Below are positions 49,862 through 52,841 of a stretch of 64,000 nt of DNA, in pieces (the stretch's first letter is position 1; each line of letters starts with the position of its first letter). The stretch comes from Patescibacteria group bacterium (GTDB taxonomy: Bacteria > Patescibacteriota > Patescibacteriia > Buchananbacterales > UBA6539). The stretch covers positions 66,752 to 130,751 of the forward strand of contig JAQTYZ010000003.1 in the NCBI GenBank assembly GCA_028688055.1, written 5' to 3'. Made by a program: the position numbers and the translations under genes. A model generated the notes under the pieces. That model was not told where the DNA came from, did no database searches, and was given only the letters and a program-made list of their open reading frames with translations.

Positions 49862-50515
49862 ATGCATGAGATCCAAAAAAAATTGCTAAATTTAGCTCAA
49901 GAAATGAATTTGGGTCAGATGACGCTAAGAGAAGTTGGCGGTTTAATTGGCGAAACATCGCCGCAAAAGATTAAGCACCACCTTAGTCAGCTGGAAAAAC
50001 GTGGTTTGATTCGAGTTGATCGGATTAAGGGTATAGTCCGAAAGACCGAACAGGAGCAGGTAGGCGGCTTATTAAATAAATCAAAACTGTTAAGCATTCC
50101 GATTTTCGGATCTGCCAATGCCGGTCCGGCTGAAATATTCGCCGATCAGGATGTTTCAGGATTTTTACGAATTTCGAGCAAGCTATTGGAGCCGGAAGTT
50201 ATGAGCCATAAACTATTTGCCATTAAAGTACAGGGGCCGTCGATGAATCGAACTGACGTGAAGGGGAAAACAATTGAAGACGGCGATTTCATTATCGTCG
50301 ACAGTGATGACCGTGAACCGGAAGATAATGCTGTCGTGCTATCACTCATAGACAGTATGGCCAACGTTAAGCGATTGCATCTTGATACGGCAAACCAGCA
50401 AATCATATTGGCATCGGAATCAACTCAAGATTTTCCGCCGATTGTCATCCATGAAGATGATGACTACTCAATCAACGGCCGAGTAGTACAGGTAATTAAA
50501 AAATTTAAAGTTTAG
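49862..50515 (+). CDS. LexA/CI-like autocleaving repressor (HTH plus S24 peptidase)
   Basis: N-terminal winged HTH; C-terminal VQGPSMN (Ser) and VKRLH (Lys) of the S24 Ser-Lys dyad. Confidence 0.7.
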   Translation: MHEIQKKLLNLAQEMNLGQMTLREVGGLIGETSPQKIKHHLSQLEKRGLIRVDRIKGIVRKTEQEQVGGLLNKSKLLSIPIFGSANAGPAEIFADQDVSGFLRISSKLLEPEVMSHKLFAIKVQGPSMNRTDVKGKTIEDGDFIIVDSDDREPEDNAVVLSLIDSMANVKRLHLDTANQQIILASESTQDFPPIVIHEDDDYSINGRVVQVIKKFKV

Positions 50516-50519
50516 GAGT

Positions 50520-51044
50520 ATGTCGACTACAACTCAATTTTTTATTACAGCATGGACTATTCTTGATTCGTTGCCAACCGTTTATAGTTTGGTTGCCGGC
50601 ATGTCAGTTGGTATTTTACTAATCGCCTGCATTCTCAGAAAAGAGTTTCGTTGGTTTAGAAATGTCAGAAGGCCAATTATGATTTTTTCTCCCAAAGGCA
50701 GTACGACGCTTGATATGAAGATGGAAACTAAAATTTTGCGAGATACTAAGTTTTTTAAAATTCCTGAAGACCCGTCGGATAATTTTCAAGACTGTCACAA
50801 CATTGCCAACCATAGTTTAGTCATTGTTGGGTATGAGCCCGGCATGGCTGGCTTTAAGGATATATTGAACGCCGTGAAGAGTGTAAAGATTCCTATAGTA
50901 GTTTATACAAAGCAACCGCTTGCCGAAACTGACCGGAATTTATTGAATAGTTACCCGTGGCATTCAGTCTGTAACTTTCCGCTAAAATTATTAAGCGATA
51001 CTTTTACTATTTTATCAACATTCCCTAACAAAAAAAGAATATGA
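50520..51044 (+). CDS. TM-anchored protein with small cytoplasmic alpha/beta domain; candidate CBASS effector
   Basis: One or two N-terminal TM helices; stop overlaps the CD-NTase start (ATGA). Confidence 0.35.
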   Translation: MSTTTQFFITAWTILDSLPTVYSLVAGMSVGILLIACILRKEFRWFRNVRRPIMIFSPKGSTTLDMKMETKILRDTKFFKIPEDPSDNFQDCHNIANHSLVIVGYEPGMAGFKDILNAVKSVKIPIVVYTKQPLAETDRNLLNSYPWHSVCNFPLKLLSDTFTILSTFPNKKRI

Positions 51045-52051
51045 CGACGCAAGAATTTTTTGATGGCCTGCTTGACCATGTCGATTTGAAGGTCAGCGAT
51101 AAGGAGCGACGACTGATCGAAACTAAACAGAATGAGCTGCGCGAAAAGTTGCGCGAATTCCTGGATTTAGAGGATGATTTCCTTACGGGGTCATACCGTC
51201 GCAATACAATCATTAAGCCGAGGAATCCATCGGAAAAATTTGATGTCGATGTGTTTGTTGCTTTCAACAAGGAAGATTACGAGAATAAGGACTTAGCTGA
51301 GCTTCGGCAAACGGTAATTGACGCTTTGCATAATATAAATAGTCAGTACCCAGAGCTGGGGATCTCGCGAATTAATGAAAGCCAGCGTCGTTCCGTTAGA
51401 GTTGAATTTGGGAATAATTTTCAAATTGATGTCGTTCCGGCGATTCAAATTGAAAAAGATGTTCACTACAAGATTTTTGACAAGAGGACACTCTCGGCAG
51501 TTAAGTCGAATCCAAAACTGCACGGTGAATTACTGACCAAGGCTAACGAGCATGCGAAAGGTAAATTAGTCCCTTTAATAAAAATGTTACGGGCGTGGAA
51601 GCGTCAAGAGTGCCCATACGTTAAATCATTTCATATTGAGTTACTGGCGGTTGAGATTTTAGGATCGTCAAATTTCGATTCCTATTCCGAAGGGGCTGAT
51701 ATATTTTTTGATAAGGCAAGGGAGTATGCGAAGAGTGCTTGCCTTAAGGATCCGGCAAACGCCGATGTCACTATTGATGACTACCTCGATGATGACGGCA
51801 AGAGGCAAGACTTTATTAACCTAATTAACACAGAATTTCAATTGTCAGAAGAAGCAAGGAAATTAGAATCGGTCGGGGACGAAGATGGTGCAGTCGCTAA
51901 GTGGCAAGAAATTTTCTATGACGAAGATGAAAAAACTGCGGCGGCGATTAGGTCTGGTAACTTTTACGTGGGTGCTGGTGGAGTGGTAGTAGGCAATAAT
52001 GATGAGCAAAAGTATGGGAGAATTGAATCGCCCCGTTCCTACCGAGTCTAA
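51041..52051 (+). CDS. cGAS/DncV-like nucleotidyltransferase (CD-NTase, SMODS domain)
   Basis: GSYRRNTIIKPRNPSEKFDVDV (GS...DxD) and third Asp in QIDVVPA; helical domain LIKMLRAWK. Confidence 0.65.
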   Translation: MTTQEFFDGLLDHVDLKVSDKERRLIETKQNELREKLREFLDLEDDFLTGSYRRNTIIKPRNPSEKFDVDVFVAFNKEDYENKDLAELRQTVIDALHNINSQYPELGISRINESQRRSVRVEFGNNFQIDVVPAIQIEKDVHYKIFDKRTLSAVKSNPKLHGELLTKANEHAKGKLVPLIKMLRAWKRQECPYVKSFHIELLAVEILGSSNFDSYSEGADIFFDKAREYAKSACLKDPANADVTIDDYLDDDGKRQDFINLINTEFQLSEEARKLESVGDEDGAVAKWQEIFYDEDEKTAAAIRSGNFYVGAGGVVVGNNDEQKYGRIESPRSYRV

Positions 52052-52841
52052 CCCGCAATGGTACGATACATTACCAGATCGCCTTGAGGAAGAAATTCGG
52101 TTAATGAAAGAATTTCATCCTTCATTTGATCTTAGCCATTCTGCCGGGGAAAGTATTTTTTGGACAGGATATGCGAAAGCATTGCGAAGCGATGGTTCAG
52201 TAATTACAGTATTGAAAATTAAAATAGAATGTCCAGCAGCATATCCTTTTTTATTTCCCCTGGTTTATGATTCTGAGAACATTTTGTTTAACCGCGGTTG
52301 CCCGCACCTAAGTAATAGCAGCGGCGGTTTTTTCACTCTTTGTTACGGGAATAGGCTCGATCCCCAGTTGGATTTTCAAGGGTCTACACGTGTTAAGGAC
52401 GTAGTAAACTACGTATGCATTTTTCTTGCCCGCCAATGGCATTTTGAAAGGTATGGTTTTTGGCCTGACGGTCAACCTCACGGTGAATTAGCCTTTTTAT
52501 ATCATGAGATTAAGCAAGACGTTTTGAATCCTGATGATTTATGCCCCTGTGGCCTAACTGAAAAAACATACAGACATTGTCATATGCCCGCTGTTTTAAA
52601 CGTTCTCAACCAATGGGACCTATCCCTAAAAGGAGAAATCAGGAAACGTGTTGATCAGGTTAGTGGTAGAAATGACCCATGCCCTTGTGGGAGCGACAAA
52701 AAATTTAAAAAATGTTGTTCGCCAAAACTAAATTATTCAAGTAAGTTTTTTTTATTCATGAAATTTCCAGAATTTTTTGACTTTGATTTGTTCAGGCGTG
52801 ATAATATATTAAATGCTTTGTGTGGCATGAAAACTGAATGA
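51999..52841 (+). CDS. E2 (UBC)-like protein with two C-terminal SEC-C zinc motifs; Cap2-like partner of the CD-NTase
   Basis: YPFLFPLVY...GCPHL...GGFFTLCYGN resembles the E2 YPFKPP/HPN/Cys core; CPCG...C.H and CPCGSDKKFKKCC. Confidence 0.4.
   Translation: MMSKSMGELNRPVPTESNPQWYDTLPDRLEEEIRLMKEFHPSFDLSHSAGESIFWTGYAKALRSDGSVITVLKIKIECPAAYPFLFPLVYDSENILFNRGCPHLSNSSGGFFTLCYGNRLDPQLDFQGSTRVKDVVNYVCIFLARQWHFERYGFWPDGQPHGELAFLYHEIKQDVLNPDDLCPCGLTEKTYRHCHMPAVLNVLNQWDLSLKGEIRKRVDQVSGRNDPCPCGSDKKFKKCCSPKLNYSSKFFLFMKFPEFFDFDLFRRDNILNALCGMKTE

Follow-up and report, generated by a model that had tools for sequence, protein, structure and literature searches.

A LexA-type autoprotease repressor heads, and probably controls, a type II-short CBASS operon in a Patescibacteria genome

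The antiphage operon described here lies in a 64-kb stretch of DNA (64,000 nucleotides of contig JAQTYZ010000003.1, positions 66,752 to 130,751, hereafter the window) from a metagenome-assembled genome of Patescibacteria, the candidate phyla radiation (CPR), and was studied throughout by sequence analysis. At positions 49862-52841 of the window, four open reading frames (ORFs), closely packed head to tail on the plus strand, encode a LexA-type repressor, a small transmembrane (TM) effector, a cGAS/DncV-like nucleotidyltransferase (CD-NTase) and an E2-like protein. The last three constitute an antiphage signalling system based on cyclic oligonucleotides (CBASS) of the E2-only, type II-short kind, and it is likely that this system is co-transcribed with, and controlled by, the LexA-type repressor encoded by the first gene. 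We infer this regulation from the features of the repressor, of its promoter and of related loci that are described below.

The LexA-type repressor

The first gene of the operon (49862-50515, plus strand) encodes a protein of 217 amino acids (aa) with a winged helix-turn-helix (wHTH) and an S24 autoprotease domain, which matches the Pfam S24 family (PF00717) at 2.7e-17 and aligns end to end with Escherichia coli LexA, the N-terminal domain included. In an alignment of 30 homologs, the cleavage site A87-G88 and the dyad S127/K170, which align with A84-G85, S119 and K156 of E. coli LexA, are invariant, and the N-terminal wHTH is strongly conserved with many invariant residues. By these alignments, the gene encodes a full-length LexA homolog with intact predicted autoprotease residues. 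The N-terminal domain matches the LexA/wHTH families and not HTH_3, and the matches of the protein to PHROGs are confined to its S24 half. Domain scans found no M78 domain in this or the other operon proteins, the protease being the fused S24 domain, and no WYL, STAS or GHKL domain in the operon proteins.

Homologs of the window LexA number in the hundreds at 57-81% identity, and the family spans 258 species-level genomes of Patescibacteria, Acidobacteriota, Elusimicrobiota, Bacteroidota and others. A recA gene is divergent from and adjacent to a family member in nine loci, a DnaE2-type polymerase lies nearby in four, and MgsA and endonuclease III are found among the other neighbours; because such genes adjoin its members, the family includes genuine chromosomal SOS LexAs. 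Viral contigs, on the other hand, contain only distant (<=40% identity) or partial matches to the window LexA, and known phages match it at no more than 27% identity, so that there is no evidence for the family being typical of sequenced phages.

Organisation of the operon and nature of the immune cargo

The second gene (50520-51044), for a single-pass TM protein of 174 aa, begins 4 nt after lexA and shares an ATGA overlap with the third (51041-52051), which encodes the 336-aa CD-NTase. The third and the fourth gene (51999-52841), for a 280-aa E2/UBC-fold protein with two SEC-C zinc knuckles, overlap by 38-53 nt according to the start chosen for the latter, and a start at 52014 (275-aa form) is the more likely one, favoured by the homologs and by an independent gene caller. 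All are on the plus strand. A terminator scan yielded a sole convincing intrinsic terminator, which closes the operon after the fourth gene (52994-53020, plus strand; GGGGAGC-TTA-GCTCTCC followed by a T-run, with a 7-bp stem containing five GC pairs), and the next gene downstream is pheS, with a promoter-like site of its own. In the related loci, lexA and its cargo are likewise separated by short gaps or overlap. A 68-aa ORF (52838-53044) annotated as a gene on the public contig encloses the operon terminator, has no family match and is probably not a real gene.

The nucleotidyltransferase matches SMODS (7.6e-20), the DncV-like NTFase family (1.9e-7) and the PADLOC cyclase model (3e-55), and scores 170 bits with NCBIfam CBASS_cyclase_b, short of its 200-bit equivalog cut-off. 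Its nearest relatives in the PDB are CD-NTases (9sa4, 6p8u, CdnC and CdnD), and the residues G50-S51, D68-x-D70 and D130 are invariant in an alignment of four homologous operons. Near the C-terminus, a conserved Gly-rich tail (GxGGVxVGG) precedes a stretch of some 17 residues that ends in SPRSYRV and not in a C-terminal Gly.

The fourth protein matches PADLOC CBASS E2 models at 1e-15 and contains two SEC-C stretches, and its close homologs carry PF26395 (E2-CBASS). Its AlphaFold2 model has a mean predicted local distance difference test score (pLDDT) of 88, and the top 50 PDB structure matches of this model are all E2/UBC/UEV proteins. An invariant cysteine, Cys110 in the 275-aa form, lies in a C-Y-G-N-R motif downstream of a CPH motif and is the likely active site. 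No ThiF (E1) or JAB/Cap3 domain was matched by any of the four operon proteins in the domain scan. Since the nucleotidyltransferase is a CD-NTase, the fourth protein has an E2 fold and neither E1 nor JAB is present, the cargo belongs to type II-short CBASS, its effector having one TM helix, and is an ordinary system of a known kind.

The TM protein has no Pfam match; it does match the PADLOC TM effector models PDLC01057 ('TM', 6e-21) and PDLC00664 ('1TM', 3e-6) over the full model length. A homolog with 52% identity ends a canonical SMODS-Cap2(E1/E2)-Cap3(JAB) operon, which settles the role of the TM protein as a CBASS effector. The structure model (pLDDT 79) shows, besides one long helix at the N-terminus, an alpha/beta domain with four parallel strands, flavodoxin/CheY-like and generic in kind; a STING-, SAVED- or TIR-like fold found no support. 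Searches of PDB sequences with the E2 and TM proteins returned the SEC-C knuckle only, or nothing.

An earlier note on this DNA, made from the sequence alone, had described a four-gene operon led by a LexA-like HTH-S24 autoprotease, with the 4-nt gap and the ATGA overlap given above, and had likened it to type II-short CBASS. This description is borne out, as are the assignments of the third protein to the CD-NTases rather than to the MNT/KNTase nucleotidyltransferases and of the fourth to the E2 fold with two SEC-C knuckles; the profile searches that it had proposed (SMODS, E2 and S24) all gave matches. It had, in contrast, placed the TM protein in no recognised effector family, which the PADLOC matches and the homolog beside Cap2 and Cap3 correct, and the STING- or TIR-like fold that it had suggested looking for is replaced by the flavodoxin/CheY-like domain.

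Immune operons headed by LexA-type genes elsewhere

The genomic contexts of the homologs were surveyed in a sample of loci (designated L002 and so on), and the proteins encoded downstream were scanned with Pfam and PADLOC models to assign the cargo. The closest relatives of the window LexA were found directly upstream of, and co-directional with, varied immune cargo, which includes at least five CBASS architectures, Pycsar (pyrimidine cyclase system for antiphage resistance), TIR proteins and a GTPase system. The lexA gene is followed by a CD-NTase and a SLATT protein in L002, by a CD-NTase, an E2 and a patatin in L004, by a TM protein, a CD-NTase and an E2-like protein in L005, by a DUF2188 protein, a CD-NTase and a Cap15-type effector in L088, by a CD-NTase fragment and a SAVED effector in L009 and by another CD-NTase operon in L008. 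The remaining cargo comprises a Pycsar-type cyclase with a TIR effector that binds cyclic nucleotide monophosphates (cNMP) in L007, a DUF1883-TIR protein in L034, DUF2188, GASH and DO-GTPase2 proteins in L006, a DUF2188 protein, a cyclase and a SEC-C protein in L038, and DUF2188 and ThsB-TIR proteins in L087. Upstream of the defence-linked lexA genes lie restriction-modification (RM) genes, HipBA, Fic/SIR2 or an archaeo-eukaryotic primase, without conserved synteny.

Altogether, a LexA-type gene abuts CBASS in at least ten independent loci. CBASS occurs in roughly a tenth of genomes, and by a rough estimate, chance would place a given gene among at least 1000 next to it in under 1/10,000 genomes. 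A home-made hidden Markov model (HMM) of the CD-NTases, built from the first matches, recovered seven cyclases only and missed the divergent ones of L004 and L088, and the figure of 1 of 80 was therefore dropped; a single-protein metagenome scan found only two loci.

The linkage was also recovered from the side of the cargo, by reciprocal look-ups of five loci that were reached from homologs of the E2 or TM proteins at about 50% identity. Three of the five (L098, L102 and L103) contain the same LexA-TM-cyclase-E2 operon as the window, with LexA proteins 56%, 25% and 32% identical to that of the window, respectively; the LexA sequence of L102 shows the Ala-Gly site and the GSSM and VIKRL motifs with the Ser and Lys. 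L104 is a canonical type II CBASS without a regulator, and L105 has the same effector with a cyclase under a divergent pair of an HTH_3 protein and an M78 peptidase, of the CapH/CapP type. Judged by sequence, homologous TM-cyclase-E2 operons are headed by three unrelated LexA lineages, and a different known regulator fills the slot elsewhere; in view of both, a single ancestral accident is hard to credit.

These contexts bear on the explanation that the gene is simply the only housekeeping SOS LexA of its genome, with a 3' flank that is by chance a hotspot for defence islands, so that their adjacency was not selected for any regulation. In its favour, one LexA only would be expected in genomes as small as those of Patescibacteria, the chromosomal LexAs of the family that lie by recA or dnaE2 carry the same promoter box, and the defence-linked LexAs are no more alike to each other than to other members. 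The recA and DnaE2 neighbours had at first backed this explanation, which the recurrent immune cargo and the three lineages then weakened. The cargo is always co-directional, usually 0-50 nt away or overlapping and without an intervening terminator; a dedicated CapH/CapP pair occupies the same slot before homologous cargo; and the Acidobacteriota copies lack conserved synteny and lie among RM, toxin-antitoxin, Fic and SIR2 genes. Even a chance insertion would, by read-through from the SOS promoter, make the cargo damage-inducible. A mere chance neighbourhood thus appears quite improbable, and a repressor that serves the operon it heads remains the preferred reading. In a neighbour-joining tree (without bootstrap), the defence-linked LexAs fall into two adjacent clades, apart from the copies linked to recA, DnaE2 or ZnuABC.

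Several further observations were made in these loci. In seven of about 75 loci (including L006, L038, L087, L088 and L089), the gene next to lexA on its downstream side encodes a small DUF2188 protein and precedes such unrelated cargo as the GTPase system, a Pycsar-type cyclase, ThsB-TIR and CBASS; DUF2188 is also found in published CapH/CapP-linked operons and may be a regulatory or adaptor component. In the LexA-headed Pycsar-like operons, a protein of 261-281 aa is encoded between the cyclase and the TIR effector; that of L038 (10545-11327) carries a SEC-C knuckle, recalling the C-terminus of the window E2 protein, and that of L007 (2529-3371) has no Pfam match. In L004 (11598-16290), a complete type III CBASS (SAVED effector, SMODS, bacterial HORMA and AAA/TRIP13-like proteins) and the LexA-led type II-short CBASS stand back to back, and McrBC and an Eco57I-type enzyme adjoin the latter in a dense defence island. 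A 929-aa ORF of L009 (4079-6865) combines SAVED and molybdopterin-oxidoreductase domains, either as a real fusion or as an artefact of ORF calling or assembly. A DNA methyltransferase is divergent from lexA and shares its regulatory region in the window (47288-49334) and in L002, L004, L005, L089, L098 and L102; it is of the ParB-N6/N4, N6/N4, C5 or D12 type, and that of the window has no obvious partner restriction enzyme.

Promoter and candidate operator

The probable promoter of the lexA-CBASS operon (49789-49817, plus strand) consists of a -35 element TTGCTA (49789-49794), a 17-nt spacer and a -10 element TAAACT (49812-49817). It was called by comparison only, since the consensus promoter scan scored it under the threshold; the same layout aligns in L002, L088, L089 and many further loci, and a conserved CGTAAA (49801-49806) lies inside the spacer. 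Seven nucleotides before the -35 element, a candidate LexA operator box, GTCAAGTATTA (49771-49781, plus strand), is the sole exact match in the window. Its core, GTCAA[G/C], precedes lexA in 74 of 90 loci, where 7.8 would be expected, and lies 42-75 nt ahead of most lexA start codons, and the 11-mer GTCAA[G/C]NNTTA occurs 54 times in 2.3 Mb, 42 of these in lexA promoters. The box often stands in two or three tandem copies in the lexA promoters of Acidobacteriota, and the box region is invariant among five related elements. Direct-repeat LexA motifs are known from several phyla (PMC7739468).

A second, imperfect copy, CTCAAGATTTA (49737-49747, plus strand), which has one mismatch to GTCAAGNNTTA and lies 34 nt upstream of the exact box, overlaps the -10 element of a predicted minus-strand promoter and is presumed to have a regulatory role as well. 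This divergent promoter (TTGACA-17-TAACAT, 49747-49775, minus strand; 10/12 matches in the promoter scan) would serve an operon of Zn-ribbon, ParB-methyltransferase, methyltransferase, terS and terL genes. Since both boxes overlap it, one repressor could hold both operons.

The GTCAAG-NN-TTA box is the likely LexA operator, and a better candidate than the 23-bp imperfect inverted repeat to which the earlier note had given that role. The repeat itself exists and is somewhat longer (49559-49676), with 26-nt arms at 49559-49584 and 49651-49676 that are 85% complementary and 66 nt apart. It is situated in the divergent intergenic region, some 190-300 nt ahead of the lexA start codon, is conserved neither in the closest relative, L002, nor in other relatives, and forms a stable hairpin of 118 nt that has U-runs on either strand (z = -3.3 on the plus and -4.4 on the minus strand). 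It was accordingly rejected as an operator. It is more likely a transcribed leader, attenuator or terminator-like hairpin of the divergent minus-strand operon, because the predicted minus-strand promoter (49775-49747) would transcribe through it. It could also be a bidirectional terminator. Different hairpins, with the common arm start AACGCCCAGACAC, occur in the corresponding upstream region of L005 and L088.

The phage-like backbone and the exchange of cargo

The genes divergent from lexA (45349-49528, minus strand), identified with Pfam and PHROGs, encode a 61-aa Zn-ribbon ORF, a ParB-N6/N4 methyltransferase, a second methyltransferase, TerS and TerL, with PHROG matches to terL (phrog_38, 7e-77), terS (2e-9) and phage-type methyltransferases. 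This backbone is shared by the window, L002, L005, L088, L072 and L012, synteny being established for L002, L005, L088 and L072; the small divergent ORF (49343-49528) has no homolog at the matching position in the related loci. In L002, whose LexA is 82% identical, the genes are syntenic with the window at 66-87% protein-level similarity from position 42664, through the LOOT RNA, a 362-aa gene of unknown function, terL, terS, the two methyltransferases and the promoter, to lexA. The similarity ends at the lexA stop codon, beyond which the two loci carry different CBASS types. As the backbone is phage-type and the synteny stops exactly there, the repressor in this lineage belongs to a phage-derived and probably mobile backbone, and the slot after lexA is probably a point of cargo exchange. 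A serine recombinase is additionally present in L002 and L005 and an endolysin lies downstream in L089. The annotation of the window shows neither capsid nor portal nor tail genes next to the terminase.

The S24 protein might accordingly be, first of all, a CI-like immunity repressor of this element, its cleavage mainly inducing the element and affecting CBASS secondarily, with CBASS as an exchangeable cargo expressed while the element is quiescent, in the manner of lambda cI-rexAB or 434 cI-hex. The backbone common to six loci, the recombinases, the endolysin, the replacement of the cargo beyond lexA and the candidate boxes that overlap the promoter facing the terminase operon all fit such a role, and co-transcription of a repressor and a second protein from the repressor-maintenance promoter (PRM) is known (PMC3564112). 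The LexA-led immune modules are, however, also found without the terminase cassette, in chromosomal settings or defence islands (L098, L103, L004, L006-L009 and L034); the terminase backbone is missing from L004, L098 and L103, where the neighbours are RM and McrBC genes in L004, a C5 methyltransferase and a chaperonin in L098, and MurB and DNA ligase in L103. Unrelated LexA lineages head the same cargo, and the lack of structural genes by the terminase and the distance from anything in known phages also speak against it. We regard it as unlikely that immunity to the element is the primary role; this explanation is nevertheless compatible with control of CBASS by the LexA-type repressor and differs from it mostly in emphasis.

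The left part of the element adjoins a GC-rich (0.54) diversity-generating retroelement (DGR) at 39720-42669. Its template repeat (41050-41174, 125 nt) and variable repeat (40563-40687), the latter forming the 3' end of an ORF at 39720-40685, differ at 17 positions, 16 of them template adenines, and its reverse transcriptase is split over two ORFs (41564-42226 and 42244-42669). The only att-like direct repeat found was a 19-nt pair (GTAGACAAACTGTAGATAA, copies 89% identical) at 39558-39576 and 42666-42684, which brackets the DGR block. As this pair flanks the DGR and the synteny with L002 starts at 42664, insertion of the DGR into or beside the element is suggested. The LOOT RNA (Rfam RF03000, 80 bits; 42771-42888), which stands where the synteny with L002 has its left end, is kept beside the terminase/methyltransferase/LexA backbone in L002 (~1546-1710) and L089 (~465-716) and may be a component of this element.

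Proposed mechanism and its appraisal

Under the proposed mechanism, a dimer of the repressor would bind the GTCAAG-NN-TTA box or boxes by the -35 element of its own promoter and keep the lexA-effector-cyclase-E2 transcript low and self-limited; it would probably repress the methyltransferase/terminase operon too, as the boxes overlap the divergent promoter. Phage replication or DNA damage would give rise to filaments of RecA on single-stranded DNA (ssDNA), which would promote self-cleavage of the repressor at Ala87-Gly88 through Ser127/Lys170, derepress the operon and load the cell with CBASS proteins. The E2 protein would prime or regulate the cyclase, and the cyclase, on sensing the phage, would produce a cyclic oligonucleotide. 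Once this had bound to its cytoplasmic alpha/beta domain, the TM effector would damage the membrane and abort the infection. Since the repressor is first in the operon and would be resynthesised together with the immune proteins, a self-limiting pulse would follow. The binding of the box, the dependence on RecA, the cyclic-oligonucleotide signal and membrane disruption by the effector are all presumed. Repressors of this kind stand at the head of many immune operons of different types in other genomes, so that such defences are probably under the classical SOS switch; the recurrent linkage across lineages supports the DNA-damage-responsive control that the earlier note had suggested and that we infer here.

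Several observations weigh against this interpretation. The match of the 217-aa protein to LexA_DNA_bind (PF01726; 8.6e-5) falls just short of the Pfam cut-off, at 22.7 against 23.7 bits, and with 78.2 bits the protein does not pass the cut-off of the TIGR00498 lexA equivalog (110.95). No recA gene is present in the 64-kb window, so that the linkage to the SOS core holds for the family and not for the window copy, and many LexAs of the same family have ordinary housekeeping neighbours. The mean pairwise identity among the defence-linked LexAs (58%) hardly differs from their identity to other Patescibacteria LexAs (56-57%). The box was found before essentially no other SOS genes in the lexA-locus flanks that were scanned, which gives no indication of a wider regulon, and it lies mostly upstream of the -35 element, a placement that is not classic for a repressor. 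Finally, co-transcription of lexA with the CBASS genes is deduced from gene spacing only, and the promoter scan indicated a weak promoter-like site within lexA (50382-50409).

The HTH score just under the Pfam cut-off and the presumptive nature of DNA binding could also be taken to mean that the S24 protein is not a transcriptional regulator here; it would then be a neighbour that has decayed or has no bearing on the system, or else a part of CBASS itself that signals on sensing RecA. This appears highly improbable in view of the conserved wHTH with its invariant residues, the passing of the LexA_DNA_bind cut-off by most homologs, the full-length alignment to LexA and the family-specific box conserved in the promoter of the gene itself.

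Comparison with known systems

Type II-short, E2-only CBASS is a recognised category (PMC11153139), and the window operon resembles it in its intact CD-NTase, its E2 partner without E1 or JAB, its small TM effector catalogued by PADLOC and the typical order and overlaps of its genes. It differs in beginning with a LexA-type gene, for which co-transcription is presumed, in the two SEC-C knuckles of the E2 protein and in a cyclase without C-terminal Gly; the knuckles are probably not new, since several PADLOC E2 models also cover them.

Canonical LexA/SOS systems share with the window repressor the full-length homology, the Ala-Gly site and Ser/Lys dyad, the occurrence of family members by recA or dnaE2 and a box in the promoter of the gene itself. 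The putative box, GTCAAG-NN-TTA and sometimes tandem, is however unlike CTGT-N8-ACAG or GAAC-N4-GTTC, the protein stays under the TIGR00498 cut-off, and the genes downstream are for abortive infection and not for repair.

In lambda (cI-rexAB) and 434 (cI-hex), an S24-type repressor is co-transcribed with an exclusion function. Such prophage operons likewise combine an S24-type repressor with an exclusion or abortive-infection gene beside a divergent lytic or packaging operon (PMC3564112). The window protein has a LexA-type wHTH in place of the Cro/CI HTH_3 domain, its backbone consists of terminases and methyltransferases without visible structural genes, and the module is also found outside such elements.

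How bacteria hold back immune systems that kill the cell itself, and still have them at hand, is under active study, and the three regulator families known for it, CapW/BrxR, CapH+CapP and CapK+CapS, are all listed as DNA-damage-responsive controllers of immune operons in a 2026 paper (PMC13373217). In diverse defence operons, the regulator slot close to the promoter is taken by CapW/BrxR (WYL) or CapK+CapS, which react to DNA damage (PMC13373217). The same is proposed for the window repressor, whose inactivation would, in contrast, be an irreversible cleavage and not ligand binding or phosphorylation. The closest parallel in logic is CapH+CapP, in which a repressor is inactivated by proteolysis on DNA damage, as presumed in the window, and which also controls many different immune cargos. 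CapH+CapP is associated with the same DUF2188-cyclase-TIR cargo and the same TM effector as the LexA operons, a cargo of DUF2188, guanylate cyclase and cNMP-TIR having been described with it (10.1101/2022.04.27.489752). It consists, however, of two proteins with an M78 metallopeptidase, as against a single polypeptide with a Ser-Lys S24 autoprotease, a difference in protease class to which the earlier note had rightly pointed, and its protease binds ssDNA directly, where the presumed trigger in the window is the RecA filament. Furthermore, CapW and CapH/CapP are usually divergent from their operons, whereas the window lexA is co-directional and the first gene. No LexA/S24-type controller of CBASS or related systems is described in the literature searched, the coverage of which was incomplete, and PADLOC has no model for one.

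It is therefore proposed, tentatively and with slightly less than even confidence, that LexA-type wHTH-S24 autoproteases form a fourth class of immune-operon controllers beside CapW/BrxR, CapH+CapP and CapK+CapS, which would wire CBASS, Pycsar, TIR and GTPase systems to RecA/SOS and, unlike the known classes, would be co-transcribed as the first gene; the site after the lexA stop codon would be a hotspot of cargo exchange, in some lineages within a Patescibacteria mobile element with terminase, methyltransferase and LOOT RNA. If true, immune operons would be plugged into the best-understood bacterial stress switch, RecA-stimulated self-cleavage, so that their induction would be predictable, open to SOS inducers or inhibitors and testable by standard LexA assays. 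Wherever an S24/LexA-type gene directly adjoins unknown genes of the same orientation, these would then be marked as candidate defence cargo, a simple annotation rule that could help to find new systems, especially in uncultivated Patescibacteria, and the swap of cargo at the lexA stop codon with a shared terminase/methyltransferase backbone hints at a mobile vehicle for the modules. The CBASS of the window is thus ordinary, and the new part is its presumed regulator, which would combine the logic of CapH/CapP with another class of protease, another presumed sensor, RecA, and another arrangement of the genes.

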